Origin: Kiloniellaceae bacterium
GTDB lineage: Bacteria > Pseudomonadota > Alphaproteobacteria > Kiloniellales > Kiloniellaceae
Assembly (NCBI GenBank): GCA_036570545.1
Contig: DATCXZ010000054.1
Location: forward strand, 1,558 to 65,557
DNA length: 64,000 bases
Direction: 5' to 3'
Shown: in pieces, positions 12,017-56,605 of the stretch
Position numbering within the stretch: position 1 is the first letter of the stretch
Layout: every line of letters starts with the position of its first letter
Position numbers and translations under genes: made by a program
Notes under the pieces: generated by a model
The model's database searches: none
The model's input: only the letters and a program-made list of their open reading frames with translations
What the model was told of the DNA's origin: nothing

Positions 12017-13228
12017 TCAGGCGAGGCGCTGCTCGGCGCTGCCGCGGCGTTGCAGGCAGTCATCGATGAGACGATCGAGCCTCGCCATCGAGCGCGCCCA
12101 GCTGTGGTTCGTCTCGACCCGCGCCCGGCCGGCGTTCGCCAGCGCCCGCCGCGCGGCACCGTCGTCCATCAACCTGAGCAGCTTTTCCGCATAGTCCTCG
12201 GCGGAGCGGGCAACCAGGATGTGCTCGCCGGGCACCGCGTCGACGCCGCCCGCCGCCTGCCAGCTCGCCACCACCGGCACGCCCATCGCCATGCATTCGA
12301 GGATCTTGTTCTGGGTACCGCGCGCGATGGCGAGCGGCGCGACGCTGGCGGCTGCGCGCCTGACAGGGTCGCGCACGTCGGGAACCGTGCCGGTCACGGT
12401 AATGCCAGGGCGCTGGCCGAGGCGCCGGATCGCGCGGGAGGGTTCGGCGCCGATGATGGCGAAGCGCGCCGTCGGCCGGCGTTGGTGGATCAGCGGGAAG
12501 ACTTCGTCGCAGAAGAAGGTCGCCGCCTGCTGGTTGGGGAAGTAGTCCATGCGCCCGACGAAGCAGAGGGAATCCGGATCGTAAGGCTCGTTGCCCGGCG
12601 TGAAGTAGTCGCAGTCGACGCCGTTGGGGAACCAGTCGGAGGGGGTCGGCACCTGGTACTTCCTCAGCGTCTCCAGCTCGGCCCTGGTCGTGCAGGTGCA
12701 GAGGTCGAACTGCCGTGCGAGCGCCTTTTCGGCCGCCTCCATCTTGCTGCCTTCGAGCCAATAGCCGAGCGATAGCGGGAACGGCTTGAAGCGCCGGTAG
12801 ACCAGCCATTTCTGCGAATCCATGTCGCCGAAGTCGAGGATCTTCGGAATGCCCCTGACCCCGGCAACGTAGGGCGCCACCGAGGAGCAGTGCGCCAGGA
12901 TGAGGTCGAAGCTCTCCTGCCGCAGGCGCTCGCGCAGGCGCCGCGCGAGCTCGGGGGCGTAGAAGTATCCCATGGAAGAGGGTCCCGGCGTCGGCAGCCG
13001 CGCGATCATCCGCCCCCAGGCACCCGCCGCATTCACCCGGCCCATCATGAAGTCGGCGCAGTGGTCGGCGATGCCGCGGCCGGCCGCGGCCTCTGCCGCC
13101 GAGCGCGCCAGCGAGGCGACCACCACCTCGTGCTTGCGGGCGAGGTGCCGGATCATGTTGAACGGCCGGATCTTGCCGCCGCGCGCGGGCGGGTAGGGAA
13201 AGCGATGGCAGACGAAGAGAATTCTCAT
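12017..13228 (-). CDS. XrtA-system GT4 glycosyltransferase (TIGR03087-like)
   Basis: MRILFVCHRFPYPPARGGKIRPFNM, DMDSQKW, GTQNKILECMAMG. ATG overlaps the asnB stop (ATGA). Confidence 0.88.
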   Translation of the reverse strand: MRILFVCHRFPYPPARGGKIRPFNMIRHLARKHEVVVASLARSAAEAAAGRGIADHCADFMMGRVNAAGAWGRMIARLPTPGPSSMGYFYAPELARRLRERLRQESFDLILAHCSSVAPYVAGVRGIPKILDFGDMDSQKWLVYRRFKPFPLSLGYWLEGSKMEAAEKALARQFDLCTCTTRAELETLRKYQVPTPSDWFPNGVDCDYFTPGNEPYDPDSLCFVGRMDYFPNQQAATFFCDEVFPLIHQRRPTARFAIIGAEPSRAIRRLGQRPGITVTGTVPDVRDPVRRAAASVAPLAIARGTQNKILECMAMGVPVVASWQAAGGVDAVPGEHILVARSAEDYAEKLLRLMDDGAARRALANAGRARVETNHSWARSMARLDRLIDDCLQRRGSAEQRLA

Positions 13229-15165
13229 CCGACCGCCGAGACCTCCTCGGTAAGCTCCGCGGCAAGGTCGGCCGGAGCCCGCCCGTCGAGATAGATCTGC
13301 GCCCAGATCTCCAGGTTCAGCAGGGCAAGGAGATGGTCGGTGTGGTCCTCGCGGCTCGCGAAATGGAGGGCCATGGTCTCCTCGATCGCCGGCCAGGAGA
13401 ACAGGCCGCGCCGCTCGACCGCCTGCTTGGACAGCAGGCGGAGCAGCATGGGCTGCAGGTCGCGCTTCAGCCAGGCGCCGATCGGCGCGCCGAAGCCGCG
13501 CTTCCTGCGCTCGAGGATCTCCGGCGGCAGAATGCCGTCGAGCGCCCGCTTCATCAGGCTCTTGAGGCTGCGCCCGTCGATGCGCAGGGCGGCCGGCACG
13601 CGCGCCGCCAGTTCGACCAGTTCGTGGTTCAGCAGCGGCACCCGGCATTCCAGGGAGCGGGCCATGGTCATCTTGTCGGTCAGCATGAGGAGGTCGTTGG
13701 GGAGCTGGGTCATCAGGTCGACCCGCATCAGCCGGTTGAGGCCGTCACCGCCGCGTGCGAGAGCGAAGGCTTCCTGCAGGCCGTCGATGCGGCCGGCGCG
13801 GGCCTCCTTCAGGAGCCGATCGAGGCTCTCCTGGCCAAAGACCTGCACGTAGCTGCGATAGCGCTCCTCGAACGGCAGGTCGTTCGAAGCCACGAAGGTG
13901 CGCGCATAGCGGGCGACGCTGGAGAGGCGGCCGTGCCGGTCGCTCGGCATCGCCTGCACCAGCGGCGCGATGACGGCGCTGCGCATCCAGGCCGGCAGGC
14001 GCTGATATTGCGCGGTGTAGTAGTCGCCCAGGTAGCGGCTGTAGCCGCCGAACAGCTCGTCTCCACCAACGCCGGAGAGGATGACCGTGACGTCCCGGCG
14101 GGCGAACTCTGCCACCAGGTAGGTCGTCACCAGGGCGGAGTCGGCGACCGGCTCGTCGAGGTGCCAGGCGAGCTTCGGCAACAGGCCGGCGGCCTCCGGG
14201 CGGACGACGATCTCGTGGTGGTCGGTGGCGAAGCGTTCGGCGACGGTCCGCGCAAAGGGCAGCTCGTTGTAGACCTCGCTGGCCGCGTCGCCCTTGAAGC
14301 CGATGGAATAGGTCTTTACCGGCCGGTCGCTGTGACGCGCCATAAAGGCCACGATGGCGCTGGAATCGATGCCACCGCTGAGAAAGCTGCCGAGCGGCAC
14401 GTCGCTGACCATCTCGGACACCACCGCGGATTCCATGGCCGCGCGCAGCCGCTCCGCCCAGTCCGCCTCGCTCGGCGCGTCGTCGGCTTCCGCAGGGATC
14501 TCCCAGTAGCGCTCGATCCTGTAGCTGCCGTTCTCACAGACCAGCAGGCTTGCCGGCGGCAGCTTGCGGATGCCGGCGAACAGCGTCTGGTCGTTGCCGC
14601 TATAGCCGAAGGCCAGATAGTCCTGCAGCGCGCCGGCGTCGATGCCGCGGGCAACGCCGGGCACGGTCAGGAGCGCCTTGATCTCCGAGGCGAAGATCAG
14701 CCGGCCCTCGTGCTCCAGGTAGTAGAGCGGCTTGATGCCGAGCCGGTCGCGGCCCAACACCAGGCGCCGCCGCGGCGCATCCCAGATCGCAAAACCGAAC
14801 ATGCCGAGCAGCCGCCCGACGAAGGAAGGGCCCAGGCGCTGGTAGAGGTGAACCAGCACCTCGGTGTCGCTGCCGGTCCGGAAGCGCGCACCCGCGGCCG
14901 CTAGATCTCGCCTGATCTCACGGAAATTGTAGATCTCGCCGTTGCAGACGGTCCAGATGGTGCCTTCGGCGTCGGAAATCGGCTGATGGCCGGTATCGAG
15001 ATCGATGATCGAGAGCCGGCGCATGCCCATTGCCAGGCCGCGGTCTGCATGGAAGCCTTCGTCGTCCGGCCCGCGGTGGGCGATGACCGCGCCCATGGAC
15101 TCGAGCAGCGACGGGTCGCAGTTGGCGCCATCCCGCAACGCCACCAAGCCGTAGATTCCGCACAT
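13225..15165 (-). CDS. asnB: Asparagine synthase (glutamine-hydrolysing)-like amidotransferase
   Basis: N-terminal MCGI, HRGPD, RRLSIIDL, NGEIYNF, RDRLGIKPLYY, FLSGGIDSS, SGVGGDELFGGY. Confidence 0.93.
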   Translation of the reverse strand: MCGIYGLVALRDGANCDPSLLESMGAVIAHRGPDDEGFHADRGLAMGMRRLSIIDLDTGHQPISDAEGTIWTVCNGEIYNFREIRRDLAAAGARFRTGSDTEVLVHLYQRLGPSFVGRLLGMFGFAIWDAPRRRLVLGRDRLGIKPLYYLEHEGRLIFASEIKALLTVPGVARGIDAGALQDYLAFGYSGNDQTLFAGIRKLPPASLLVCENGSYRIERYWEIPAEADDAPSEADWAERLRAAMESAVVSEMVSDVPLGSFLSGGIDSSAIVAFMARHSDRPVKTYSIGFKGDAASEVYNELPFARTVAERFATDHHEIVVRPEAAGLLPKLAWHLDEPVADSALVTTYLVAEFARRDVTVILSGVGGDELFGGYSRYLGDYYTAQYQRLPAWMRSAVIAPLVQAMPSDRHGRLSSVARYARTFVASNDLPFEERYRSYVQVFGQESLDRLLKEARAGRIDGLQEAFALARGGDGLNRLMRVDLMTQLPNDLLMLTDKMTMARSLECRVPLLNHELVELAARVPAALRIDGRSLKSLMKRALDGILPPEILERRKRGFGAPIGAWLKRDLQPMLLRLLSKQAVERRGLFSWPAIEETMALHFASREDHTDHLLALLNLEIWAQIYLDGRAPADLAAELTEEVSAVG

Positions 15166-15171
15166 CGTCGC

Positions 15172-16389
15172 TCAGCCTCCGCGGTTGGTGCCCGGCAGCC
15201 GCTCATAGACGGCGGCATAGCGCGCCACGACGGCATCCCAAGTGCGCTCGGTCTCCACGTAGCGCCGCCCCGCCTCGCGCATGGCCGGCCAGTCTTCCTG
15301 CCGGTCGATAACCTCCGCCAGCTTGCCAGCCAGCGCGCCGGCATCGTCCGCTTTGAAAAGATAGCCGCGCTGCCCGTCCACCAGGAGTTCCCGATGGCCG
15401 CCGACGTCCGAAGCCACCACGATAGAACCTTGCGCCATCGCCTCCAGCGGCTTCAAGGGGGTAACCAGGTCGGTGAGCCGCATGCGGTGGCGTGGATAGA
15501 CGAAGAACGTCACCAGGTCGTAGTAGCGGCGCACCTGCTCGTGCGGCACCCGCCCGGTGAAGACGACCTGATCGCCGATACCCAGCCGGTCGACCTGGGC
15601 AACCAGGCGCTCCTTCTCCGGCCCTCCGCCGACCACCAGAAGCTTCACTCCCTGCCGTTCGCGAAAGAGGCGCACCATCGCCTCCATCAGGAGCTTCAGC
15701 CCCTCGTAAGCGTAGAAGGAGCCGATGAAGCCGAGCACGATGCAGCCTTCCAGGCCCAGCGAACGTTGCAAGGCGGCGTCGACGCGCCGCTCGGTGGTGA
15801 AGCGTTCGGTGTCCACGGCATTGGGCACCACGGTCACCTTGCCCGCCTCGATGCCGCGGCCGAGGATGTCGTTCTTCAGGCCCTCGCAGATGGTGACGAT
15901 GGCATCCGCATGGCGCAGGACGTAGGTTTCCAGGAACCGCGTGGAGCGGTAGCGCAGATCGCCCTGGCGCGCGGTGCCCCAGTCCACGGCGGCGTCTTCC
16001 CACAGGGAACGCACCTCGTAGACCAGCGGCAGGCCGTGGCGCCGCGCCGTGCGCAGTGCCGGAATACCGTTCAGCACCGGCGAATGGGCATGGAGGACGT
16101 CGGGCCGTGTTTCTTCGATGACCTCATCGAGGCGGGCGCGGGTACGCTCCATCTGGGCCAGCTCACGCAGCACCGGCAGCCTCTGCGTCGCGGCGGCGGG
16201 CTGCGGCGTGCGGTAGAAGGTCCATCCTCCTGCTTCGTCGACGAGGCCATCGAAGCGATACTGCTTGGGCGTCGTCATCTGCACCGTGTCCCAACCGCGC
16301 TTGCGCTGCGCCGCGAGGATGCCCACCGTGCGAAAGCTGTAGCCGCTCTGCAACGGCAGCGAGTGGTCCAGCAGATGAAGGATTCGCAC
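15172..16389 (-). CDS. XrtA-system GT4 glycosyltransferase (TIGR04063-like)
   Basis: VRILHLLDHSLPLQSGYSFRT, HAHSPVLNG, TDLVTPLKPLEAMAQG. GTG start at 16389. Confidence 0.88.
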   Translation of the reverse strand: MRILHLLDHSLPLQSGYSFRTVGILAAQRKRGWDTVQMTTPKQYRFDGLVDEAGGWTFYRTPQPAAATQRLPVLRELAQMERTRARLDEVIEETRPDVLHAHSPVLNGIPALRTARRHGLPLVYEVRSLWEDAAVDWGTARQGDLRYRSTRFLETYVLRHADAIVTICEGLKNDILGRGIEAGKVTVVPNAVDTERFTTERRVDAALQRSLGLEGCIVLGFIGSFYAYEGLKLLMEAMVRLFRERQGVKLLVVGGGPEKERLVAQVDRLGIGDQVVFTGRVPHEQVRRYYDLVTFFVYPRHRMRLTDLVTPLKPLEAMAQGSIVVASDVGGHRELLVDGQRGYLFKADDAGALAGKLAEVIDRQEDWPAMREAGRRYVETERTWDAVVARYAAVYERLPGTNRGG

Positions 16390-16423: not shown

Positions 16424-17740
16424 CTACCAGCAGATGCCTTCGTAGTCGACACCTTCCCGGTTCTGCAGGGCAGCCACACCCTGCAGATCGATGACGCAGC
16501 GGCCCGGAGCGGCTGCGGCAATGGCCGGCACGGCATCGGCCGGAACGTGACCGACCACGATGGTTCCGGCACCGGCCAAGGTGTCCTCGATCGAATTGCT
16601 GATCAGCCGGTCGAGGTGCGGGATCTCGCGCTCGATGTACTCGAGATTCGCGCCGGTCAGCCGCGCGAGGTCGACGGAGCGGTCGAAGATCGCCACATCG
16701 AAGCCTTTGCCGATCAGACGTTCCGCAAGCGATACGAAGGGAGACTCGCGCAGATCGTCGGTGCCCGGCTTGAAGGCGAGGCCGAAGAGCGCGACCTTGC
16801 GCCGCCCCCGCCGCTGAACCATCTCGAAGGCCCGGTCGATGTGGCTGTCGTTGCTCGTGAGGATGGAGGTCATCATTGGCAGCTGCAGGTTCTGCGATTT
16901 CGCCAACTCGGCGACGGCGCGCAGCTCCTTCGGCAGGCAGGAGCCGCCGAAGGCGAAGCCAGGCCGCAGGTAGGCCGGAGAAATGTTGAGGTCGCGATCC
17001 TCGCAGAAGATGCGCATGGTGTCGCGAGCATCGATGCCGAGCGCCTTCATCAGCGCGCCGAGCTCGTTGGCGAACGCAATCTTGATCGCATGATAGGTGT
17101 TGCAGGCGTACTTCAGCGATTCGGCAACGCCCGCCGACGTCACGTAGAGCGGCGCGTCGATGCCGGCATAGAGGGCCTCGACTGCCGCGCAGTTACCGGG
17201 CCCCACCTTGCCGACGATGGTGAAGGGCGGCGCGAAGAAATCCCTTACAGCGGCGCCTTCACGAAGAAATTCGGGATTGAAACAGAGCCCGAGGCCGTTG
17301 CCGATCTCCCGCCCGACAATGGCCTCCAGTTTGGGGGCCACCCGTTCCTCGGTGGTCCTCGGGGCCACGGTCGAGCGTACCACCACGCTGTGCGCCTCGT
17401 TCTTGTGGCGGATGGCCTGTCCGATCGAGGACACCACCGCGTCGAGCGCCGCCAGGGACTGGCCGCCGCCGGCGCCGGATGGCGTTCCCACCGAAATCAG
17501 CGAGATCTCGCTTTCCATAACGGCCTCGGTGGCATCGTCGGTTGCCGAGATGCGGCCGGCGGCGCTCGCCTCGGCCATCAGCTTGGTGAGGCTCTGCTCC
17601 ACCACCGGGGCAGTGCCGGCATTGATCATGTCGACCTTGGCGCGGTTGACGTCGACGCCAATGACCTGGTGCCCGAGGCGCGCCAGGCAGGCGCCGGAAA
17701 CCGCGCCCACGTAGCCCATGCCAAATATGGAAACCTTCAT
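16424..17740 (-). CDS. UDP-glucose/GDP-mannose dehydrogenase family protein, AlgD-like
   Basis: GMGYVG, FNPEFLREG, GFAFGGSCLPK, FKPGTDDLRESP, C-terminal EGICW as in AlgD. Confidence 0.9.
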   Translation of the reverse strand: MKVSIFGMGYVGAVSGACLARLGHQVIGVDVNRAKVDMINAGTAPVVEQSLTKLMAEASAAGRISATDDATEAVMESEISLISVGTPSGAGGGQSLAALDAVVSSIGQAIRHKNEAHSVVVRSTVAPRTTEERVAPKLEAIVGREIGNGLGLCFNPEFLREGAAVRDFFAPPFTIVGKVGPGNCAAVEALYAGIDAPLYVTSAGVAESLKYACNTYHAIKIAFANELGALMKALGIDARDTMRIFCEDRDLNISPAYLRPGFAFGGSCLPKELRAVAELAKSQNLQLPMMTSILTSNDSHIDRAFEMVQRRGRRKVALFGLAFKPGTDDLRESPFVSLAERLIGKGFDVAIFDRSVDLARLTGANLEYIEREIPHLDRLISNSIEDTLAGAGTIVVGHVPADAVPAIAAAAPGRCVIDLQGVAALQNREGVDYEGICW

Positions 17741-17843: not shown

Positions 17844-18980
17844 TCAATTGAAGGTCGGGCGCAGCTTTCCCCTGTCCGCTCCACCAATGCTCTTCAGCCG
17901 CTCCGCGACGCGGCCCATCCTGGCTTTCTGCGATCCCTTGACCAAAATGCAGTCGCCATCCCCGACCAGTTGTCCAATGGCGTCCGCGCAGGCTTTGCTG
18001 GTCGGGTACCAGCGATCGGGCTCGTAGTGCCGGGCCAGTTCGCCGACCGCCACAATCATATCGGCGTGGCGACGTGCGACGATCCCGATATCGCGATGAA
18101 ACTGCAGCGCCCGCTCGCCGAGCTCGCCCATCTCTCCCAGCACGGCGAGGCGACGCTTTGCCTGTGCGGCCGGCGCCAGCTCGCCCAGCGTTTCCAGGCC
18201 GAGCCTCATGGACAGCGGATTCGCATTGAAGCTGTCGTCGATCAGCGTGAACCGCTCCAACCACATGGTCCGGAGCCGGCCCTTCGGGGGCTCGAAGGAG
18301 GCCAAGGCTGCGTTCACCGCCAGGTCCGGGATCTCAAGGCGCCGGGCGATAACCCGGGCGATTGCCACAGCCAGGTCAATGCCCCTGCCCGGCACTCGGA
18401 CAACCGGAGCTCGCGCCATGGCTTGCAGCCGGTCGACGAGGGGGTGGTTGTCGCCAAGAATCACCAAACCGCCCGGCGGCACCGCCCTGATCAGGGCCCC
18501 TTTGTGCTCAGCTACGGCCTCCACCGTCTTCAAATATTGCAGATGCGCCGGCCCTATGGTGGTGACCACCGCGATATCGGGACGGGCAAGCCTCGCCAGT
18601 GTCTCGATATGCGCGTCTCCTCCCAGTGCGTACTCAAGAACCAGAATGTTCGGATAGCCGGCACCGGCCATCAGCTTCAAGGCCCTCAGAGGAACCGTCG
18701 CGTAGAGCCAAAGCCGCGCCAGGTTGGTACTCCTGGTCCAGCCGTCATAGCGCAGAATGGTCTGCGGGAAGCCTCTGTCACAGTTCATGTTGTGCTGCGT
18801 GGAACCGACGCTGCCGACCACGGACCTGGCCACTGGCTGGGTCAGCACCGCTGCAATCATCGCCACCGTCGTGGTCTTGCCGGCCGATCCCGTGACGCCG
18901 ATCACGAACGGCCTGCGAGACTTCACCACGCAAGACGACCAGAATGACAAGTAAGGGACGACGACACGCTGTATCGGCAT
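17844..18980 (-). CDS. Compact MurF-like Mur ligase lacking the N-terminal domain (start uncertain, 18980-19106)
   Basis: P-loop VIGVTGSAGKTTT, PDIAVVTTIGPAHL, LIDDSFNANP, LGEMGELG, ILVKGS. Confidence 0.8.
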   Translation of the reverse strand: MPIQRVVVPYLSFWSSCVVKSRRPFVIGVTGSAGKTTTVAMIAAVLTQPVARSVVGSVGSTQHNMNCDRGFPQTILRYDGWTRSTNLARLWLYATVPLRALKLMAGAGYPNILVLEYALGGDAHIETLARLARPDIAVVTTIGPAHLQYLKTVEAVAEHKGALIRAVPPGGLVILGDNHPLVDRLQAMARAPVVRVPGRGIDLAVAIARVIARRLEIPDLAVNAALASFEPPKGRLRTMWLERFTLIDDSFNANPLSMRLGLETLGELAPAAQAKRRLAVLGEMGELGERALQFHRDIGIVARRHADMIVAVGELARHYEPDRWYPTSKACADAIGQLVGDGDCILVKGSQKARMGRVAERLKSIGGADRGKLRPTFN

Positions 18981-24321: not shown

Positions 24322-24453
24322 ACCATGCCAAGCTGGCCGTTCCTCCAGAGGAGACCAGATACCACGGTGGCTTGCAACTGCGTCCCCTGTAACTTCGGTG
24401 AGCATGCCGCAGAGGCTTCCTTGCGCCGTAGCGGGCGGGCCTCGGGCTAGTCT

Positions 24454-30617: not shown

Positions 30618-30634
30618 CGGATCGACGCTCGCGC

Positions 30635-30766: not shown

Positions 30767-30934
30767 AGCAGCCCAGCCCGCCCGAGCAGGCGCGGGGGCC
30801 CGACTTCAGAACCTTCGGCTGAAGCGCGTCGCTTGGTCAACCGGCAGGGGCGTTGCTACGCTTTCCATCGGGAAATCCTGCGGCCAAGGCAGACAGCGCC
30901 GCTGCCGCCGAAAACCGCTCGTGGAAGATCGCCG

Positions 30935-38563: not shown

Positions 38564-38716
38564 AATTCGACGGGCCAAGCCATAGCCCCTGACAGTGAAC
38601 CCCTTCCGTCCGTCAGCGCAACATGGGACGCAGGTCCCACGCAATGCCGCAAGGATTCCAAGGGCCCGAGACGGCGGTTTGCCGCGAAAGGCAGGCTGTG
38701 CTATGCGGTATTGACT

Positions 38717-39274: not shown

Positions 39275-39401
39275 CGCCGGCACCGCCGTTGCAAAGCGAA
39301 GAAAAGCTTTGACCCCTCAAGGAGATCCTGCAACCTAGTTCCTCCTGGCCGCGCTGGCTGTTGATGAGCCATTGCAGGCACATTCGGGGAGACTGGGCCT
39401 G

Positions 39402-44442: not shown

Positions 44443-44459
44443 GGTGCGGGCAAATCTCC

Positions 44460-46109: not shown

Positions 46110-46227
46110 GCCAGTTGCTCCGGTCGTCCCTGCTATCCTGGATCAGCCTGGGCGATTCCCACAGCTACGCCAGCACCATCGACTGTCGCCGCACAAGGAA
46201 AAAGCACCTGTCGCGGCGACGCACAGA

Positions 46228-48658: not shown

Positions 48659-48664
48659 GCCGCC

Positions 48665-50041: not shown

Positions 50042-50190
50042 CTGCCTTCAGCCAGGACCAACCGCCAAGCGGTCGTGCAGTCGCACCATTATCAAAGCGC
50101 GCTGCTGGTAAATTGCGCGAAGCTATCATAATGGTCTCCGCGAAGATGCCGCCGAGACCTCCACCATCTTACAGAATGAGTCGGCGGAGA

Positions 50191-51222
50191 CTACGGCCAC
50201 GAAGGATGCGGCGGCGTCGCGTCCGCGCCGCGCGCACCTGCCGCGCAGGTGCGCTCCCATGCCAGTGCCGTTCGAAGGATCTCGTCGAGGCTGTCGTGCG
50301 CAGGCTTCCAGTCGAAAGCTGCACGGAGGCGCGAGACGTCCGAGATGACAGCGCGCACGTCGCCCGGCCGCCGCGGCGCGATGCGCACCGGAAATGTGGT
50401 GCCGGCTGCGCGCTGCATCGCCTCGATCACCTCGCGCACGGAATAGCCGTGGCCGTAGCCGCAATTCAGCGTCAGGCTTTCCCGCCCGCTACCGAGATGG
50501 TCGAGCGCGCTGACGTGGGCCTGCGCAAGGTCGCTGACGTGAATGAAATCGCGAACACAGGTGCCATCCGGCGTATCATAGTCGTCTCCGAAGATCTCCA
50601 TTCCCGGCCGCTGTCCGGTCGCCGCCTCGCAGGCTACCTTGATGAGGTGGGTCGCGTCGGGGGTGACCTGCCCGGTCCGGCCGAGCGGGTCGGCGCCGGC
50701 CACGTTGAAGTATCTCAAGATGACGTGGCGAAGGCCGTGCGCGCGGTCGACGTCGCGCAGCATCCATTCGACCATCAGTTTGGAGGCGCCATAGGGACTG
50801 GCCGGCCGCGTCGGTGCCGCCTCGCCCACCGGGACCTCATCCGGCTCGCCGTATACCGCCGCCGTCGACGAGAACACGAAGCGGGTGATGCCCTGGTCCA
50901 CGCAGGACTGCAGCAGCGAGCGGGTCTTGCAGGTGTTGGTCAGATAATAGGTGAGCGGCGCCGCCATGGACTCAGGCACCACGATCGCGCCGGCGAAATG
51001 CATCACCGCCCCGACGCGATGACGCGAGAAGATGTGGGCGAGCAGCTTGGAATCCCCGACGTCGCCCTCATAGAACGGTACTTCCGCCGGAACGAGGCGG
51101 CGCGCGCCCTTCGACAGATCGTCCAACACAACTAAGGGGTAGCCCGCCGCCCGGCAGGCCCAGGCCGCATGACTGCCGATGTAGCCGGCGCCGCCGGTAA
51201 TGAGAACCGCGTCTTTTGTCAT
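50191..51222 (-). CDS. galE: UDP-glucose 4-epimerase
   Basis: TGGAGYIGSH, FSSTAAVYG, YGASK, LRYFNVAGA, DGTCVRDFIHV. Confidence 0.95.
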   Translation of the reverse strand: MTKDAVLITGGAGYIGSHAAWACRAAGYPLVVLDDLSKGARRLVPAEVPFYEGDVGDSKLLAHIFSRHRVGAVMHFAGAIVVPESMAAPLTYYLTNTCKTRSLLQSCVDQGITRFVFSSTAAVYGEPDEVPVGEAAPTRPASPYGASKLMVEWMLRDVDRAHGLRHVILRYFNVAGADPLGRTGQVTPDATHLIKVACEAATGQRPGMEIFGDDYDTPDGTCVRDFIHVSDLAQAHVSALDHLGSGRESLTLNCGYGHGYSVREVIEAMQRAAGTTFPVRIAPRRPGDVRAVISDVSRLRAAFDWKPAHDSLDEILRTALAWERTCAAGARGADATPPHPSWP

Positions 51223-51819: not shown

Positions 51820-51917
51820 CAATCGATGGTGTCGGCGCCAATCATGATCGGTGGCCGTTATGATTGCGGTGCCACCTAGGAACGCTGCGCTGGAAGGTCG
51901 ACGGGGGAGACCGCAAA

Positions 51918-52547
51918 ATGCCTAGAACAGTTCTGCACACCTTCATTCTGGCGCTTCTCGCTCTGTCGGGCGCCTTTGGTCTCAGCGCTTGCTCGACCAA
52001 GCCCGAGGTGCCGGCGGCGCAGGCGGCGGTACCGGCACTACCGCCGCTCTACCAGGTCGGAGCCGGCGACTCGCTCACCATCTTCGTCTGGCGCAATGCC
52101 GAGCTGACAACGACGGTGGTGGTGCGGCCGGACGGGCGCATTTCCGTCCCGCTGATTGAGGATCTCTATGTGGAGGGAAAGAATCCCAGCGATCTGTCGC
52201 GGGAGATCGAGACCGAGCTCGCCGTCTACATCCAGGATCCCCTCGTCACCGTCATGGTCGGCGGCTTCGTCGGCACCTTTCCGCAACAGGTGCGGATCGT
52301 CGGCGAAGCCTCGGTTCCGCAGGCGATACCCTACCGTGCCAACATGACGGTGCTCGACGTCATTATTGCGACCGGCGGGCTGACGGAGTTCGCCGACGGC
52401 AACAACACGACACTGGTGCGGCTCGACAACGGCGATCCCCAGGAATACCGCGTCAGGCTCGATGACCTTCTGGAGGACGGCGACATCTCCGCCAATGTCG
52501 CGCTGTTGCCTGGCGACATCCTGATCGTTCCGGAGACGTTCTTCTGA
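51918..52547 (+). CDS. XrtA/PEP-CTERM exopolysaccharide export lipoprotein (Wza-like, TIGR03027-like)
   Basis: Lipobox LSAC, YQVGAGD, VRPDGRISVPL, SLBB region, PGDILIVPETFF. Confidence 0.92.
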   Translation: MPRTVLHTFILALLALSGAFGLSACSTKPEVPAAQAAVPALPPLYQVGAGDSLTIFVWRNAELTTTVVVRPDGRISVPLIEDLYVEGKNPSDLSREIETELAVYIQDPLVTVMVGGFVGTFPQQVRIVGEASVPQAIPYRANMTVLDVIIATGGLTEFADGNNTTLVRLDNGDPQEYRVRLDDLLEDGDISANVALLPGDILIVPETFF

Positions 52548-52568
52548 ACGTGAGACTTCTGAACGTGA
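52541..52568. repeat. 13-bp direct repeat (CTTCTGAACGTGA x2) across the export-gene stop codon
   Basis: Copies at 52541-52553 and 52556-52568. Confidence 0.8.
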
Positions 52569-52697
52569 AGCCTGGGCTCGCTCCATGAGGTCCGGAGGAC
52601 GCCGTTCCTCCTGGAAGGTCGCGCAGACGCAACAGCGCCCATCGCAGGCTTGCGAGGTGCGTGCGCGGCAACGGCGCAGGAAGGATTGAGACTGCTG

Positions 52698-53816
52698 ATG
52701 GCAGGCTCACGGAAAATCCATCCGGTTCTCCTCGCGGGAGGCAGCGGCGTGCGCCTGTGGCCGGTGTCGACGCCCCGCCACCCCAAGCCCTTTGTGCGCC
52801 TGGCCGGGACCAAGACGCTGCTGCAGGTGACGGCGGAGCGTGTCACAGACCCCTCCCGCTTCACGCCTCCCCTGGTGGTCTGCAACAAAACGCACCGCTT
52901 TCTGGTGGCTGAGCAGCTCCAGCAGATCGGCATCCGGCCGCAGCGAATCGTGCTCGAGCCGTCTCCGCGCAACACCGCCCCGGCCGCCTGCACGGCCGCT
53001 CTCGTGCTTGCGGAGAACCGCGCCGATGCTCTGCTTATGCTCGCCCCTTCGGATCATCTGGTGCGGGATGTCCCGGGCTTCCTGACGGCGGTGGATCGCG
53101 GCGCCGAGGCAGCCGCGCGCGGCCGGATCGTGACTTTCGGCGCCAATCCCGACAGGGCGGAAACCGGCTACGGCTACGTGGAGCGCGGCGAAGCCATTGA
53201 CGGCGGCGCCGGCAGCTTCTGCCTCAAGCGCTTCGTCGAGAAGCCCGACCGCGCCACGGCGGAGTCCTACCTGGCGAGCGGACGCTACCTCTGGAACAGC
53301 GGAATGTTCCTGATGTCCGCAGAACGCCTGCTCTCCGAGATGGAGAGCTGCGCGCCCGCGGTGCTGGCGGCCTGCCGCGAGGCCTTGGCCGCCGCGACGG
53401 TCGACGAGGATTTCCTCCGTCTCCAGGAGAGCGCCTTCGCCCGACAGCCGAGCGTCTCCTTCGACATCGCCGTCATGGAGCGCACGGGCCACGGCGCCGT
53501 CGTGCCGATCGACATCGGCTGGTCCGATGTCGGCTGCTGGGATGCGCTCTACCAGGCCGCCGACAAGGACGACCGCGGCAACGTCCTCAACGGCGAAGTT
53601 CTGGCGGTCGACTGCGACAACAGCTATCTGCAGAGCGCGATCCTGCCGATCGCCGCCCTCGGCCTGGAGGGCATAGCAGTGGTCGGCACCGCCGATGCCC
53701 TGCTGATCTGTCCGCGCGCGCGCTCCCAGGACATGGGAATCGTGGTGGACCGTCTGGCCGGCGACCCACGCTTTGCCCCACTCGTCCGGCACATGGCCGA
53801 CGAGAGCGTCGAATAA
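52698..53816 (+). CDS. Mannose-1-phosphate guanylyltransferase (ManC GMP domain only)
   Basis: VLLAGGSGVRLWP, LEPSPRNTAPA, PSDH, ETGYGY, FVEKP, WNSGMF, GWSDVG. No C-terminal cupin. Confidence 0.9.
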   Translation: MAGSRKIHPVLLAGGSGVRLWPVSTPRHPKPFVRLAGTKTLLQVTAERVTDPSRFTPPLVVCNKTHRFLVAEQLQQIGIRPQRIVLEPSPRNTAPAACTAALVLAENRADALLMLAPSDHLVRDVPGFLTAVDRGAEAAARGRIVTFGANPDRAETGYGYVERGEAIDGGAGSFCLKRFVEKPDRATAESYLASGRYLWNSGMFLMSAERLLSEMESCAPAVLAACREALAAATVDEDFLRLQESAFARQPSVSFDIAVMERTGHGAVVPIDIGWSDVGCWDALYQAADKDDRGNVLNGEVLAVDCDNSYLQSAILPIAALGLEGIAVVGTADALLICPRARSQDMGIVVDRLAGDPRFAPLVRHMADESVE

Positions 53817-53837
53817 GAGCGGCAGGACGAGGGCGAG

Positions 53838-54722
53838 GTGCCGCACGAGATTCAGACAGCCGGGTTGTCCCGCTATCAGCGCCCGCTGGCGCGAGCGGCG
53901 TCCGCGGCCAGCCGGCGGGCGCGTGCCCTTGCTGCTATGCGCCGCTGGCTGGAGCAAGGCCTCTATAGCCTCTATGAGCGCCACCTGCTGGGCCAGCTCC
54001 ACGACGGCGAGCTGCCCCGGCATGTCGGCATCATCCTCGACGGCAACCGGCGGTTCGGAAGACGCCGGCAAATCGCCGATCCCCACGAGCTCTACTCGAT
54101 GGGGGCAGCCAAGCTCGACCACGTCCTGAACTGGTGCACCGCCCTTGGCATCCCAGCGGTGACGCTCTGGGTATGCTCGACCAAGAACCTGCAGCGGTCG
54201 GCGCAGGAAGTTTCGGGAATACTCGCCGCCATCCAGGACAAGCTCGCCGACCTGGCGACCGATCCCCTGGTGCACCAGCGCCAGGTGCGCGTCCGCGCCG
54301 CCGGCCGCCTCAACCTCCTGCCAGCCTCCCTGCGCGCGACGATCGAGGCCGCCGAGGAGGCGACGAAGGGTCATGATGCCCTGGTGCTGACCATCGCCGT
54401 CGCCTACGACGGCCGCGAGGAGCTGGTCGACGCCCTGCGCTCGATCCTGCGGTCGACGCTGAGCGAGACGGAGGATCCCGGCGCAGCGATCGACGAGATC
54501 TCGGCGGACACCGTTGCCCGGCACCTCTATGTGCCGGAGCTTCCCGATCCGGATCTTATCATTCGCACCAGCGGGGAGCTGCGGCTGTCCGGCTTCCTAC
54601 TGTGGCAAAGCGCCTACAGTGAATTTTATTTTACGGAGATCGACTGGCCGGATTTTCGCAAGATCGACTTCCTGCGCGCCGTGCGGGCCTATCAGAATCG
54701 CAAGCGGCGCTTCGGCCGCTGA
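53838..54722 (+). CDS. cis-Isoprenyl diphosphate synthase (UppS superfamily, Rv1086-like motifs)
   Basis: HVGIILDGNRR, STKNLQR, YDGREE, DPDLIIRTSGELRLSGFLLWQSAYSE, RRFGR. Confidence 0.9.
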   Translation: MPHEIQTAGLSRYQRPLARAASAASRRARALAAMRRWLEQGLYSLYERHLLGQLHDGELPRHVGIILDGNRRFGRRRQIADPHELYSMGAAKLDHVLNWCTALGIPAVTLWVCSTKNLQRSAQEVSGILAAIQDKLADLATDPLVHQRQVRVRAAGRLNLLPASLRATIEAAEEATKGHDALVLTIAVAYDGREELVDALRSILRSTLSETEDPGAAIDEISADTVARHLYVPELPDPDLIIRTSGELRLSGFLLWQSAYSEFYFTEIDWPDFRKIDFLRAVRAYQNRKRRFGR

Positions 54723-54864
54723 GAAGAAGAGGCCCCATTCGAGAGCTACCCATCTTCGCAGAAAGTCAGCCCTTTATGCCTTTGACCTGCCCTTCTGTTT
54801 AGGTCCAGCATGAATCCGGCGCGAGATCGAAGCGGCATGCATCAACGCCGAAGGGAAGCGGATT

Positions 54865-55251
54865 ATGGACGCCCTGGCCAAGACCACAACCGCCGTTCGC
54901 TATGATATCGGAGATCACGAGGACCGCCCGTGGGGTGCCTGGCGCGTCGTAGACGCCGCGGCCAGCTTCATCACCAAGCGCGTCGAGGTGAAGCCGGGGC
55001 ACCGGCTGTCGCTGCAGTTCCACCGCCATCGCTCGGAGCACTGGGTGATCGTCGCCGGCAATGGCGAGGCCACCGTCGACGAAACCATCGCGCAGCTCAA
55101 GCCCGGCGACCATGTAATCATTCCCTGCGGCGCCAAGCACCGCATCCGCAACACAGGCGGCGAGTTGCTGGTCTTCGTCGAGGTTCAGTTTGGCGAAATC
55201 CTGGACGAAAGCGACATCACGCGGCTGGATGACGACTACGCCCGCTGCTGA
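54865..55251 (+). CDS. Phosphomannose isomerase type II C-terminal cupin (stand-alone)
   Basis: RPWG, KRVEVKPGHRLSLQFHRHRSEHW, FVEVQFG..L.ESDI.RLDDDY.R. Confidence 0.9.
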   Translation: MDALAKTTTAVRYDIGDHEDRPWGAWRVVDAAASFITKRVEVKPGHRLSLQFHRHRSEHWVIVAGNGEATVDETIAQLKPGDHVIIPCGAKHRIRNTGGELLVFVEVQFGEILDESDITRLDDDYARC

Positions 55252-55276: not shown

Positions 55277-56605
55277 ATGCGTCTCGGCCGGCTGCTGCTG
55301 TCTGGCGCAGTTGCCGCGCTTGTCGCCTGTGCCTTGCCCGCTGCGGGACAGGCCGACGACGGCCTGCGCGCGCCACGGCTCCCCGCTCTCGACAACCTGG
55401 CCGCCGGTCCCGGCGCCTGGCGTGACGGCCTCGTCGGGCCGCGGGTCGAGGGCCTTCACAGCCCCCGTCCGCCGCCGCGCGCGACGGCGCCGGTCGCGAC
55501 CGTGGCGGAGCTGAAGGCGGCGATCAAGGCCGCGCAACCGGGAACGACGATCGAGCTTCAGCCGGGCACCTACACCTTTTCCGGTGTCAGGATCGACGTC
55601 ACCCGCCCCGGCAGCCCGAAGCTTCCGATCGTGGTGCGAGCACCTGCCTTGGGTGCGGTCCGACTGCAGTTTTCCCTGCTCGAGGGCTTTCGTGTGCTCG
55701 CGCCGTTCTGGATTTTCGAGAACCTCGTCATCGAGGGTACCTGCGAGACCGATCACCGTTGCGAGCACGCGTTCCACATCGTTGGGGACGCTGCCGGCAC
55801 GGTGATTCAGAACAACTGGGTGACGGATTTCAATGCAGCCGTGAAGGTGAACGGCAAGGACGGGCGCTATCCCGACGCAGGGATCATCCGGCGCAACCTC
55901 TTCACGAACAACCAGCCGCGAAAGACGGACCGGCCCATTACCGTCCTCGATATCGTCTCGGTGAGCCGCTGGCGCGTGCAGCGGAACATCATCGCCGACT
56001 TCGCCAAGGACGGCGGCAACTTCACCAGCTATGGCGCCTTCTTCAAAGGAGCCGGCGAGGACAACATCTTCGAACAGAACCTGGTGCGCTGCGAGCTGCG
56101 CCACAGCGGCCAGCGGCGCATCGGCTTCTCCTTCGGCGGCGGCCGCACCGGCCGCCGGTTCTGCCGTGACGGCAGTTGCAGCGCCGAGCACAGGGGCGGC
56201 ATCGCCCGCAGCAACGTCATCATGCATTGCTCCGAAGCCGGCATCCATCTCAACAAGAGCGCCGACACGCTGATCCACAACAACGCGCTGATCGCAACGC
56301 AGGGGATCGAACTGCTGCGCGCCTCGACAGACGCGATGATCGTGAACAACCTCCTCGACGGCAGCATCCGCGCGCGGGAGGGGGCGACCTACACAGCGAC
56401 GAACAACGTGGTGGGCAGCGCGCTCTACTTCGATGCAGCGGGAGGCGATCTGCGGCTCGGCAACGGCGAGGCTGTCCGCGGCCGCGGCCGATCCCTGCCG
56501 GAGGGCGGTCTGGACCTCTGCGGCCAGCCCTATGACGCAGCGGCGCCGGACATCGGGCCGATCCAGTACGACGCTCCCGGCGGCTGCGCGTCGGGGCTGC
56601 GCTGA
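55277..56605 (+). CDS. Secreted right-handed beta-helix protein (chondroitinase B/PL6-like N-terminus)
   Basis: Signal peptide; VATVAELKAAIKAAQPGTTIELQPGTY; I..N..F/N repeats; C-terminal DLCGQP..PDIGPIQY. Confidence 0.75.
   Translation: MRLGRLLLSGAVAALVACALPAAGQADDGLRAPRLPALDNLAAGPGAWRDGLVGPRVEGLHSPRPPPRATAPVATVAELKAAIKAAQPGTTIELQPGTYTFSGVRIDVTRPGSPKLPIVVRAPALGAVRLQFSLLEGFRVLAPFWIFENLVIEGTCETDHRCEHAFHIVGDAAGTVIQNNWVTDFNAAVKVNGKDGRYPDAGIIRRNLFTNNQPRKTDRPITVLDIVSVSRWRVQRNIIADFAKDGGNFTSYGAFFKGAGEDNIFEQNLVRCELRHSGQRRIGFSFGGGRTGRRFCRDGSCSAEHRGGIARSNVIMHCSEAGIHLNKSADTLIHNNALIATQGIELLRASTDAMIVNNLLDGSIRAREGATYTATNNVVGSALYFDAAGGDLRLGNGEAVRGRGRSLPEGGLDLCGQPYDAAAPDIGPIQYDAPGGCASGLR

Follow-up and report, generated by a model that had tools for sequence, protein, structure and literature searches.

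A 64-kb stretch of DNA from a soil bacterium (the window) carries an XrtA/PEP-CTERM-type exopolysaccharide (EPS) locus whose scaffold encloses a tailoring block of ~21 kb (~17.8-39.3 kb). We favor, with a probability of about 0.6, a reading in which the whole would form one PrsK/PrsR/PrsT- and sigma-54-controlled Wzx/Wzy pathway, with a repeat unit that is heavily tailored in the cytoplasm prior to export. That this is a single EPS locus is supported by the presence of one priming transferase, one flippase, one Wzy-like protein, one PCP/kinase pair and one OPX protein. The product is probably a sulfated, amino-acid-bearing mannuronate polymer, none of which has yet been isolated; we infer the sulfate, methyl and amino-acid substituents from gene content. 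Such a set of tailoring enzymes in an exosortase-type EPS cluster is rare yet conserved. We found no description of a locus of this kind in the literature searched, and within that scope its designation as undescribed in the earlier note holds.

An XrtA/PEP-CTERM-type scaffold

Genes were called from third-position GC across the 64-kb window, and starts were refined using start codons, Shine-Dalgarno-like upstream motifs and, in some cases, homologue lengths. Throughout, we treat gene identities, intact motifs, the predicted absence of signal or transmembrane (TM) segments, operon coupling and conserved synteny as observations, and all substrates and the product as deductions. Gene-by-gene inspection of positions 12017-56605 revealed an XrtA/PEP-CTERM-type Wzx/Wzy scaffold, recognized through eight curated marker families as well as PrsK, PrsR and PrsT just upstream. 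Curated cut-offs are exceeded in the scaffold for TIGR03087, TIGR04063, TIGR03097, TIGR03018, TIGR03007, TIGR03013 and TIGR03027, and left of 12017 for PrsK/PrsR/PrsT, TIGR03694 (twice) and an EDSAP-1 PEP-CTERM protein. There are exceptions to the XrtA pattern: no exosortase (XrtA) gene was seen within the 64-kb window, and both AsnB and an stp2-like glycosyltransferase (192 bits, cut-off 409) fall below their XrtA-specific thresholds.

The left border of the system, earlier placed at 12017, lies nearer 500. A tandem pair of PEP-CTERM/exosortase-associated acyltransferases (514-1449 and 1529-2377, plus strand; TIGR03694 189 and 259 bits, cut-off 112) belongs to the same system though it sits outside 12017-56605. 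It is followed by a sigma-54 -24/-12 box (2637-2652, plus strand; a perfect match to TGGCACN5TTGCW) and by the EDSAP-1 family protein (2712-3713, plus strand; NF041538 230 bits, cut-off 100), whose sequence starts with a signal peptide and ends in a VPEP motif, a TM segment and an RRRR tail. PrsT (5505-8453, minus strand; TIGR02917 617 bits), PrsK (8570-10621, plus strand; TIGR02916 573 bits) and PrsR (10633-12003, plus strand; TIGR02915 612 bits) all score above their cut-offs.

Just upstream of the block lie the XrtA-system GT4 glycosyltransferases stp1 (12017-13231, minus strand; TIGR03087 448 bits, cut-off 317; start MRILFV) and stp3 (15172-16389, minus strand; TIGR04063 595 bits, cut-off 442). 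Between them is AsnB, a glutamine-hydrolysing, asparagine-synthase-type amidotransferase (13225-15165, minus strand; TIGR01536 482 bits and Pfam) with Cys2 at its N-terminus (MCG), a TIGR03108 score of 544 bits against the XrtA-specific cut-off of 817, and a predicted role in carboxylate amidation. The adjacent dehydrogenase (16424-17740, minus strand) matches AlgD over its full length (PDB 1mfz, E 3e-128) and scores 432 bits to AlgD versus 229 to the best UDP-glucose dehydrogenase, which narrows the earlier choice between GDP-mannose and UDP-sugar dehydrogenases to the GDP-mannose type. Its predicted product is GDP-mannuronate, and since the enzyme is AlgD-like the uronate is probably mannuronate; ManC and PMI are encoded in the same locus.

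To the right of the block are WecB UDP-GlcNAc 2-epimerase (39372-40523), the Wzx flippase (40578-42125) and a TuaH-like GT1 with a frameshift near 42695 (42127-43331), all on the plus strand. A minus-strand group (43357-51222) then encodes a tyrosine autokinase, a chain-length determinant, two GT4s, the priming transferase EpsB_2 and GalE (TIGR03018 250 bits, TIGR03007 467 bits, TIGR03013 537 bits, TIGR01179 423 bits), and a plus-strand group (51864-55251) encodes the OPX export protein, GDP-mannose pyrophosphorylase, a UppS paralogue and a PMI cupin (TIGR03027 225 bits; TIGR01479; TIGR00055; PF01050). Inside the block itself sits a Wzy_C/DUF5935 membrane protein with eight TM-like segments (30932-32272, plus strand; TIGR03097 495 bits, cut-off 188; Pfam), a member of the "exosortase-A-associated O-glycosylation ligase" family. 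The idea that this "O-ligase" transfers the glycan onto PEP-CTERM proteins found no support: as the sole polymerase candidate in a Wzx/Wzy pathway, the protein is more simply read as the polymerase.

Contents of the tailoring block

Every item in the block's previous inventory was found, including five amide-ligase-type genes besides AsnB: a MurF-like ligase truncated at its N-terminus, three members of ATPgrasp_ST and a divergent fourth ATP-grasp. The MurF-like protein (17844-18980, minus strand; Mur_ligase_M and C domains) lacks the MurF N-terminal domain, carries a P-loop GSAGKT at residue 32, has MurF as its nearest solved structures and scores 207 bits to TIGR01143, below the cut-off of 289. 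The ATPgrasp_ST amidoligases are AG1 (orthologue group 1 by clustering; 19181-20278, plus strand; PF14397 E 3e-32, E-x-N motif kept), AG2 (group 4; 20297-21472, minus strand; E 4e-43; orthologues of 50-63% in L088, L090 and L093) and AG3 (group 2; 25702-26796, plus strand; E 1e-40; orthologues of 51-67% in L088, L090, L093 and L095). A WD..GP..E.N motif is conserved in all three, each of which falls into a defined orthologue group. The ATPgrasp_ST family takes its name from gene context, and our literature and structure searches found no characterized member or solved structure. The fourth ATP-grasp, G20 (29340-30617, plus strand), has only a weak Pfam match (ATPgrasp_Ter), an ELNPR motif within a stretch that weakly matches biotin-carboxylase ATP-grasp domains, and orthologues of ~70% identity.

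All three sulfotransferases belong to Sulfotransfer_3 (PF13469) and are intact: ST1 (24454-25422, plus strand; E 9e-15) has PPRSGST at the position expected for PAPS binding (5'-PSB), while ST2 (33473-34375, minus strand; E 1e-37; orthologues of 70-79% in L091 and L092) and ST3 (35136-36215, minus strand; E 2e-26) carry RDGRD. The SAM-dependent methyltransferase (34372-35139, minus strand; Methyltransf_25/12/11) has the motif VLDCGCGTG, and the CE4 polysaccharide deacetylase (28177-29208, minus strand; PF01522, PgaB N-terminal match) has TIDDG, HSHRH and R..CYP. Catalytic or cofactor motifs are thus kept in the tailoring enzymes examined by motif (sulfotransferase RDGRD and RSG[ST]T, CE4 and methyltransferase). 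No signal or TM segment is predicted in the ligases, the sulfotransferases or the methyltransferase, whereas the deacetylase begins with a hydrophobic segment, which leaves its compartment ambiguous. A block-specific GT4 (26835-28163, plus strand; Glyco_transf_4) has orthologues of 58-76% in all sister loci.

Three lyase-like proteins had been counted: two are HepIII and a beta-helix protein, and the third is either G22 or G15. HepIII (36212-38563, minus strand; PF07940, Hepar_II_III_C) is a heparinase-II/III-fold protein without a signal peptide, chained to ST3, the methyltransferase and ST2 by 4-nt start/stop overlaps; its AF2 model (pLDDT 89.5) retrieves with Foldseek PL12 heparinase III, PL15/17 alginate lyases and human dermatan-sulfate epimerase 1, which makes it a candidate lyase or uronate C5-epimerase. 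The secreted right-handed beta-helix protein lies outside the block (55277-56605, plus strand); it resembles PL6/chondroitinase B (PF14592 28.7 bits, cut-off 24; weak PL6 matches in the PDB), has a signal peptide and is a candidate lyase or AlgG-type epimerase. G22 (32222-33448, minus strand), a cytoplasmic (alpha/alpha)6 six-hairpin protein, matches squalene-hopene-cyclase repeats (E 6e-12) and, weakly, carbohydrate six-hairpin enzymes in a PDB profile search; with homologues fused to tailoring transferases, it is a candidate epimerase or glycan-handling module. G15 (21724-24405, minus strand; alternative start 24321) serves as the block's signature gene: an exported protein of ~890 residues with a beta-propeller and a C-terminal jelly roll, it has no Pfam or NCBIfam match and 31 relatives among 5.8e9 proteins, and in its AF2 model (pLDDT 63) the jelly roll appears by Foldseek to resemble PL14/PL36 alginate lyases. 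G15 and HepIII homologues share a contig in seven cases, including Pelagibius marinus. The block ends with a secreted C-type-lectin-like protein (38717-39274, plus strand; Lectin_C, PF00059 29.5 bits, cut-off 22.6) that has a signal peptide and a 72% orthologue in L092; like G15 and the beta-helix protein, it has a hydrophobic N-terminus.

Sister loci and alternative explanations

The window sequence itself was matched only in DNA runs from soil metagenomes. The block recurs with the same gene order in at least six independent metagenomic loci that share a common backbone at 55-87% protein identity, and is therefore not a chance juxtaposition. Block-bearing sister loci are L088, L089/L092, L090/L091, L093 and L095. 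In three of them stp3, AsnB and stp1 flank the block, two of these reaching PrsR (with PrsK in L088), which bears out the expectation that it accompanies XrtA loci elsewhere. The proposed combination of MurF-like ligase, ATPgrasp_ST and sulfotransferase is likewise embedded and conserved, except that the MurF-like gene is a variable member: among the loci compared it occurs only in the window and in L005 and L006, which share the ligase-dehydrogenase edge and in which its orthologues (56-69%) adjoin an AG1-type ATP-grasp and the dehydrogenase. The ligase set differs from locus to locus on the constant backbone (L089 has zero ATPgrasp_ST genes), which probably makes the amide-linked substituent the feature that varies between strains.

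The MurF-like ligase may act on a peptide substrate unrelated to the glycan, given that its relatives at ~50% identity are paired with S11 peptidases (Peptidase_S11) outside any EPS context and that one, P0058, is fused to VanY. These relatives also lend some weight to a broader alternative, in which the glycan is sulfated and methylated while the ligases build a separate peptide product (a poly-amino acid or small peptide), or modify PEP-CTERM proteins or a peptide derived from peptidoglycan, sharing only their regulation with the EPS; so do the weak matches of AG2 and AG3 to RimK-related glutamate ligases and the 21%-identical Mur-type ligase that fills the MurF-like slot in L093, fused to a peptidyl-tRNA hydrolase. 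We nonetheless consider this unlikely: in at least six loci the ligases are interspersed among genes for glycosyltransferases, sulfotransferases and CE4 enzymes, neither a peptide exporter nor a gene for a precursor peptide is apparent, ATPgrasp_ST was defined in Pfam via its association with sugar transferases, and experiments have documented an ATP-grasp that acts on the uronate of a capsule (PMC11800379).

Frequent strand switches within the block, a ligase content as variable as O-antigen hypervariable regions and a Wzx gene that adjoins the block rather than the PCP/OPX genes would fit a capsule- or O-antigen-type cassette at 17.8-39.3 kb, making a different glycan within the XrtA EPS locus. 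The chances of this are small, as the 64 kb hold a single priming transferase, Wzx, Wzy_C protein, PCP/kinase pair and OPX, GC is uniform across the window (0.62-0.72), the block itself contains the XrtA-marker Wzy_C gene (TIGR03097), and the same XrtA-system genes bracket it in every locus of sufficient length. Smaller still are those of a degradation module in which the lyase-like, lectin-like and deacetylase genes scavenge alginate- or GAG-like polymers, despite the resemblances of the HepIII fold to PL12/15/17 lyases, of the G15 C-terminal domain to PL14/PL36 alginate lyases and of the beta-helix protein to PL6. Sulfatases, TonB/SusCD, sugar-uptake and uronate catabolism genes are missing, and translational coupling ties HepIII, which has no signal peptide, to two sulfotransferases and a methyltransferase. 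Lyases and epimerases are, moreover, regular members of EPS biosynthesis loci, as with AlgL and AlgG of alginate.

Proposed pathway and known systems

In the favored biosynthetic reading, ManC/PMI and the AlgD-like dehydrogenase would supply GDP-mannose and GDP-mannuronate, WecB and GalE would supply UDP-ManNAc and UDP-Gal(NAc), and the UppS paralogue the lipid carrier. EpsB_2 would prime the unit and six GT4/GT1 enzymes assemble it, after which enzymes devoid of signal peptide or TM segment would tailor it while lipid-linked. Sulfate would come from the three sulfotransferases (a PAPS-using enzyme family) and methyl from the SAM methyltransferase; the CE4 enzyme would remove N-acetyl groups and AsnB convert carboxylate to amide. 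The four ATP-grasps and the MurF-like ligase without domain 1 would form amide bonds, joining amino acids to the uronate carboxyl or onto freed sugar amines, and may lengthen these substituents into short peptides. The HepIII/DS-epimerase-fold and six-hairpin proteins could epimerize or trim. Wzx would flip the unit, the TIGR03097 Wzy_C protein polymerize it, and the PCP/tyrosine-kinase pair and OPX export the polymer, to be edited or bound outside the cytoplasm by the propeller/jelly-roll, PL6-like beta-helix and lectin-like proteins.

Known XrtA/PEP-CTERM EPS loci (Haft 2006, PMC1569441; the Zoogloea "zooglan" and Aquincola floc-formation clusters, PMC9850573; epsSMASH preprint, 10.64898/2025.12.21.693542) share with the window PrsK/PrsR/PrsT and a sigma-54 promoter upstream of a PEP-CTERM gene, the TIGR03013 priming transferase, the TIGR03007/03018 chain-length pair and the TIGR03027 exporter, as well as stp1, stp3, the TIGR03097 Wzy_C protein, an AsnB-type amidotransferase and TIGR03694 acyltransferases. 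The window differs in lacking an exosortase gene and in adding the ~21-kb block, of which we found no mention in the XrtA/PEP-CTERM EPS literature searched.

The best experimental precedent for what AG1-3 and G20 are proposed to do is Cj1438C of the Campylobacter jejuni HS:2 capsule, a TupA-like ATP-grasp that amidates the C6 carboxylate of GlcA (PMC11800379, citing PMC9619395). The likeness lies in an ATP-grasp within a surface-polysaccharide locus and, on the side of Cj1438C, an amide at a uronic acid C6 carboxylate. The window enzymes are in contrast ATPgrasp_ST rather than TupA-like, stand-alone rather than GT2-fused, and present as four paralogues plus a Mur-type ligase with putative substrates, while the nucleophile of Cj1438C is ethanolamine or serinol phosphate and not an amino acid. 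A glycan backbone with short peptides has a natural example in the "thiopeptidoglycan" sheath polymer of Sphaerotilus/Leptothrix (Kondo 2011, cited in PMC11412304). The Mur-family ligase adjoining an ATP-grasp also recalls MurF and Ddl of the peptidoglycan stem-peptide machinery, from which the window departs in its MurF-like protein without N-terminal domain and the absence of UDP-MurNAc genes. To our knowledge, the peptide-attachment genes of thiopeptidoglycan have not been defined.

Full-length AlgD similarity and ManC/PMI supply are shared with the alginate pathway (AlgD, AlgG, AlgL) of Pseudomonas and Azotobacter, and the beta-helix and lyase-fold proteins could epimerize or trim mannuronate. 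However, the window pathway is Wzx/Wzy-dependent rather than synthase-dependent, with Alg8 and Alg44 absent, and its many glycosyltransferases indicate a heteropolymer. For alginate we know of no sulfation or amide ligation. A deacetylase, several sulfotransferases and a protein with the DS-epimerase-1 fold (a similarity at the fold level only) parallel the logic by which animals modify the uronate/amino-sugar polymers heparan and dermatan sulfate with N-deacetylase/N-sulfotransferase, C5-epimerases and O-sulfotransferases. Here the donor would be GDP-ManA rather than UDP-GlcA, amino-acid ligases are added, and modification is predicted to be cytoplasmic, on a lipid-linked unit, with no Golgi.

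Sulfated bacterial EPS such as synechan (xss) of Synechocystis (PMC8205485) and the GAG-like EPS of Pontiella and granular sludge (PMC7356697, PMC10483923) are comparable in that a bacterial Wzx/Wzy-type pathway comes with dedicated sulfotransferases. The window locus differs in organism and regulation (XrtA/PrsKRT) and in its added amide ligases and AlgD-like dehydrogenase, and is a candidate for the genes behind the sulfated glycoconjugates that chemical measurements have revealed in environmental biofilms.

The XrtA/PEP-CTERM scaffold and its sugar precursors

The window carries an XrtA/PEP-CTERM-type exopolysaccharide (EPS) system that spans at least 514-56605. Since G+C content ranges from 62 to 72% and raw open reading frame lists were crowded with shadow frames, genes were called via third-position GC, with starts refined by start codons, upstream Shine-Dalgarno-like motifs and, in some cases, homologue lengths, and every called gene was scanned against NCBIfam and/or Pfam (the over-extended forms 36212-39283, 21724-24987, 30347-32272 and 34372-35643 were discarded). 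The histidine kinase PrsK (TIGR02916, 573 bits; cut-off 300), the sigma-54 activator PrsR (TIGR02915, 612 bits; cut-off 503) and the TPR lipoprotein PrsT (TIGR02917, 617 bits; cut-off 312) were all recovered. The EPS machinery likewise passes its curated cut-offs, comprising a priming transferase (TIGR03013), a chain-length determinant (TIGR03007), a tyrosine kinase (TIGR03018), an exporter (TIGR03027), glycosyltransferases (TIGR03087 and TIGR04063) and a Wzy_C protein (TIGR03097; 30932-32272, +), as do two TIGR03694 acyltransferases. A PEP-CTERM substrate is also present, namely an EDSAP-1 protein (NF041538, 230 bits) that ends in a VPEP-TM-RRRR tail; its gene is flanked by the two TIGR03694 genes, which are exosortase-associated and lie in tandem, and by an FAD_binding_4 oxidase (3790-5439, -; region 514-5439). 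No called gene of the 64-kb window matched exosortase A (XrtA/EpsH), which probably lies beyond the left end (position 1), adjoining the TIGR03694 genes. The scaffold belongs with the XrtA/PEP-CTERM EPS systems, its exosortase itself being unseen. The AsnB amidotransferase and an stp2-like glycosyltransferase fall below the XrtA-specific cut-offs (TIGR03108, 544 vs 817 bits, and TIGR03088, 192 vs 409 bits, respectively), and by these scores are related paralogues, not equivalogs.

All parts of a Wzx/Wzy pathway were found: a TIGR03013/03025 transferase, an MOP flippase (NF007773, 203 bits, under its 273-bit cut-off), the Wzy_C protein, the PCP protein TIGR03007 and the OPX protein TIGR03027. 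The earlier note had suggested that the TIGR03097 protein transfers the glycan onto PEP-CTERM proteins as an O-ligase; this role is neither needed nor supported, the protein being the sole Wzy candidate in the pathway, from which we infer that it acts as the polymerase.

A perfect sigma-54 -24/-12 box (TGGCACGCGCCTTGCT, 2637-2652, +) lies 60 nt upstream of the EDSAP-1 gene, and a one-mismatch box (39278-39293, +) about 80 nt upstream of wecB. The overall count of such patterns is not above chance (2 found vs 1.7 expected), so that position alone is meaningful, that of the perfect site, and the placement of the wecB box is at most suggestive. An RpoN-dependent PEP-CTERM gene is known from Aquincola (PMC9850573), with which the perfect site is consistent. 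Scans of the window for RNA detected no Rfam family or tRNA, and no cobalamin riboswitch; the region downstream of the system encodes a class II (B12-dependent) ribonucleotide reductase carrying a TSCPD domain (58975-62694, +). The sequence was found solely in DNA runs of soil metagenomes, and no RNA runs contain it.

The nature of the carboxylated sugar is indicated by the precursor genes. The dehydrogenase matches Pseudomonas aeruginosa AlgD over its full length with 432 bits, vs 229 bits to the best UDP-glucose dehydrogenase, and is accordingly predicted to be a GDP-mannose 6-dehydrogenase; assignments as a UDP-glucose or UDP-ManNAc dehydrogenase were dropped because of the AlgD match. As ManC and a PMI cupin are encoded in the same locus, the sugar is most likely mannuronate. 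ManC, usually bifunctional, is split here into a guanylyltransferase (52650-53816, +) and the PMI cupin (54865-55251, +), between which sits a UppS paralogue (53838-54722, +), an extra isoprenyl-diphosphate synthase that is perhaps a dedicated lipid-carrier supply.

Conservation of the tailoring block and its amide ligases

The earlier note had listed amide ligases, sulfotransferases, a methyltransferase, a deacetylase, lyase-like proteins and a lectin, and every item of that inventory was found in the window by family matches and motifs. The arrangement is shared by the loci L088, L089+L092, L090+L091, L093 and L095, whose proteins are 55-87% identical to those of the window. It runs from PrsK, PrsR, stp1, AsnB, stp3 and the GDP-mannose dehydrogenase into the ligase cassette. 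Next come G15 (a propeller and jelly-roll protein), a sulfotransferase, an ATP-grasp gene, a GT4, the CE4 deacetylase, the divergent ATP-grasp gene G20, two extra genes in some loci, Wzy_C, the six-hairpin protein G22, the sulfotransferase ST2, the methyltransferase, the sulfotransferase ST3 and the heparinase-like protein HepIII; the order then closes with the lectin, WecB, Wzx and a glycosyltransferase. A block that failed to accompany XrtA loci elsewhere would have counted against the reading of the earlier note; in the sister loci the two do co-occur. The two extra genes, missing from the window, lie between G20 and the Wzy_C gene (L089 695-3467, L091 4951-7725) and encode a Transglut_core protein of 345 aa and a protein of ~570 aa without a family match. 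A TuaH-like GT1 after Wzx (42127-43331, +) occupies two reading frames with a break near 42695, the N-terminal half running to a stop at 42801 and the C-terminal half, with its HGVDFD motif, lying in a different frame; in L092 (5383-6591) the orthologous gene codes for 402 aa and is intact, and the break is either a true inactivating frameshift or a sequencing error.

The tailoring block is rare. A metagenome scan with a G15 profile yielded one new long locus, L095, the other matches being distant propeller-domain relatives, and a scan of genome contigs with the MurF-like protein returned distant relatives only (<=34% identity) and no named genome with the block. These matches, scattered over Nocardia and other Actinomycetota, Verrucomicrobiota and other phyla, are taken to be ordinary MurF. 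In 7 cases, homologues of G15 and HepIII were on contigs of equal length and were accordingly read as sharing a contig; one is the cultured alphaproteobacterium Pelagibius marinus, with a length of 371 kb.

The MurF-like ligase (17844-18980) retains the Mur central and C-terminal domains, with a P-loop at residue 32, and lacks the N-terminal domain of MurF (about 75 residues). Its closest solved relatives are MurF enzymes, and it reaches 207 bits vs the 289 cut-off of TIGR01143; judged from its sequence, it belongs to the Mur-ligase superfamily and is not MurF. Three ATPgrasp_ST (PF14397) genes (19181-20278, +; 20297-21472, -; 25702-26796, +) score 112-148 bits vs a cut-off of 31.4 and carry the E-x-N motif and a conserved WD..GP..E.N. 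G20 (29340-30617, +) falls outside PF14397 and can be assigned to ATP-grasp proteins in general only: Pfam barely detects it, and its ELNPR motif sits within a stretch that matches biotin-carboxylase ATP-grasp domains. A PDB sequence search gave nothing usable for the second ATPgrasp_ST protein (20297-21472), and the family appears to be without a solved member. Together, the four ATP-grasp ligases and the Mur-type ligase, which have no characterised relatives, are candidates for attaching amino acids to bacterial uronates through amide bonds.

The composition of this cassette varies. The ATPgrasp_ST genes split into four orthologue groups, all of which keep WD..GP..E.N: the window carries groups 1, 2 and 4, L088 and L093 groups 2, 3 and 4, and L090 six genes (1, 2, 3, 3, 4, 4), and L089 has a RimK/CPSase-like ATP-grasp in their stead. 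A PF13480 GNAT gene adjoins G15 in L088-L090 and L093 and is missing in the window and L095; its products did not match the PEP-CTERM-associated FemAB family and are therefore called GNAT/Acetyltransf_6 only. Since the backbone stays the same while the ligase set changes, the locus amounts to a natural experiment in how side chains diversify. The MurF-like gene was also considered as a fixed component of the block, which was ruled out because it is absent from L088-L090 and because the same slot of L093 is occupied by another Mur-type ligase, likewise truncated at the N terminus and 21% identical to that of the window. In the L093 gene (15603-17534, +), a complete peptidyl-tRNA hydrolase domain (TIGR00447, 142 bits) is joined to this MurF-type ligase, a fusion that to our knowledge has not been described.

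Sulfotransferases, methyltransferase and putative glycan-editing proteins

Three Sulfotransfer_3 genes (ST1, 24454-25422, +; ST2, 33473-34375, -; ST3, 35136-36215, -) score above the Pfam cut-off and contain PAPS-binding-type motifs (5'-PSB and 3'-PB): RSG[ST]T in all three, RDGRD in ST2 and ST3, and RNGLL in ST1. PAPS is the sulfate donor for this class. The block also encodes a SAM methyltransferase (34372-35139, -) and a CE4 deacetylase (28177-29208, -), whose metal-binding motifs are present. Stop and start codons overlap by 4 nt at HepIII/ST3 (36212-36215), ST3/methyltransferase (35136-35139) and methyltransferase/ST2 (34372-34375), which indicates that these genes (33473-38563, -) form one translationally coupled operon. 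The ligases, sulfotransferases and methyltransferase have no predicted transmembrane or signal segments, which fits a cytoplasmic supply of ATP, SAM and PAPS.

HepIII (36212-38563, -) is a Hepar_II_III_C protein whose predicted structure (pLDDT 89.5) combines an (alpha/alpha)n toroid with a beta-sandwich and an invariant H290-Y291 pair. Foldseek aligned it with PL12 heparinase III (E 6e-19), PL15/17 alginate lyases and human dermatan-sulfate epimerase 1; PDB sequence searches returned nothing usable for HepIII or G15. Given this fold match, the lack of a signal peptide and the 4-nt coupling to ST3, the model makes a cytoplasmic epimerase role as likely as a lyase role. A chondroitinase-B-like beta-helix protein and a C-type-lectin-like protein are secreted, and their N-terminal hydrophobic segments, like that of G15, look like export signals. 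G15 (21724-24405, -), an exported protein of ~890 residues previously without annotation, has only 31 relatives among 5.8 billion proteins. Its model contains a confident beta-propeller and a weaker C-terminal jelly roll that Foldseek tentatively aligned, in this medium-confidence region, with PL14 and PL36 alginate lyases. G22 (32222-33448, -), also conserved and previously without annotation, forms an (alpha/alpha)6 toroid, and its family profile matches squalene-hopene-cyclase repeats (E 6e-12) and, weakly, carbohydrate six-hairpin enzymes. The family counts ~2,000 cluster representatives and has no specific Pfam model. In other organisms, fusions among its relatives (P0228-P0297) join the domain to SAM methyltransferase, Sulfotransfer_3, aminoglycoside-3-N-acetyltransferase-like, formyltransferase, FemAB/GNAT, GT4 and Wzx domains, which marks G22 as a companion of polysaccharide tailoring.

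Proposed pathway, alternatives and known systems

The evidence best fits one Wzx/Wzy pathway. Its lipid-linked repeat unit would be assembled from GDP-Man, GDP-ManA, UDP-ManNAc and UDP-Gal(NAc), after which it would lose acetyl groups and gain sulfate and methyl groups; AsnB would amidate it, the ATP-grasp and Mur-type ligases would attach amino acids to it, and it may also be epimerised prior to flipping. The flipped unit would be polymerised, exported and edited outside the cell. The carboxylate partner in the ligation could be the uronate C6, as for Cj1438C, or an amino acid joined to a freed sugar amine.

The only serious rival holds that the ligases act on a peptide that is not part of a glycan. 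Relatives of the MurF-like ligase at ~50% identity (~380 aa, also without the N-terminal domain) occur outside EPS loci, where a Peptidase_S11/beta-lactamase-type gene accompanies them in a conserved gene pair (L001-L004, 10001-12200; Steroidobacteraceae and soil contigs); one relative (P0058) is fused to a VanY D-Ala-D-Ala carboxypeptidase domain. The pair is apparently an uncharacterised module of a peptide ligase and a peptidase, with no relation to EPS. These associations hint at D-Ala-type peptide substrates, and the family's presence outside EPS loci weakens the claim that the gene is intrinsically glycan-directed. Its closer orthologues (56-69%) were found only in L005 and L006, again adjoining group-1 ATP-grasp genes and the dehydrogenase. 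That two separate loci happen to be juxtaposed is not a serious alternative, and neither is a catabolic module.

A further reading, which we regard as improbable, concerns the exosortase. The long-sought nucleophile of exosortase A would be the amino-acid or peptide side chains added to the polysaccharide by the variable ligases, or else the amines freed by CE4. XrtA would thereby link cleaved PEP-CTERM proteins covalently to the EPS, much as sortase attaches LPXTG proteins to the cross-bridge of lipid II, and the parts of MurF, Ddl and FemX would fall to the ligases of Mur and ATP-grasp type and to the PF13480 GNAT (FemAB-clan) enzymes of the sister loci. Were the side chains the acceptor, it would be settled what PEP-CTERM proteins attach to.

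Functional analogues of the block are found in several known systems: the Campylobacter jejuni amidoligase Cj1438C, which acts at the uronate C6 carboxylate (PMC11800379), Mur/Ddl peptide assembly and the peptide-bearing thiopeptidoglycan sheath polymer for the ligases; the synechan sulfotransferases; heparan and dermatan sulfate modification; and AlgD, AlgG and AlgL of the alginate pathway. Of the alginate machinery (AlgD, the Alg8/Alg44 synthase and the AlgK/E/X/G/L scaffold), however, the window contains only the AlgD-like dehydrogenase; it has no synthase, and its pathway is of the Wzx/Wzy type. Full-text searches found no paper that treats ATP-grasp or sulfotransferase genes in connection with PEP-CTERM/exosortase loci and no mention of ATPgrasp_ST or PF14397, and genes of this kind are absent from the Aquincola, Haft and epsSMASH texts; as far as these searches reach, no described system combines the block's analogues.

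Sulfated EPS has been stated to be, among bacteria, unique to cyanobacteria (PMC8205485), and chemical measurements show sulfated, glycosaminoglycan-like glycoconjugates in sludge granules as well as other environmental biofilms, which one study could not link to genes (PMC10483923). The locus provides a concrete, conserved gene set for a predicted mannuronate polymer of Pseudomonadota that would carry sulfate, methyl and probably aminoacyl groups, and with it a testable gene basis both for sulfated, glycosaminoglycan-like environmental EPS and for bacterial uronates that bear amide-linked amino acids. Since Pelagibius marinus is cultured and carries at least the two signature genes, the chemistry of the product can be tested.
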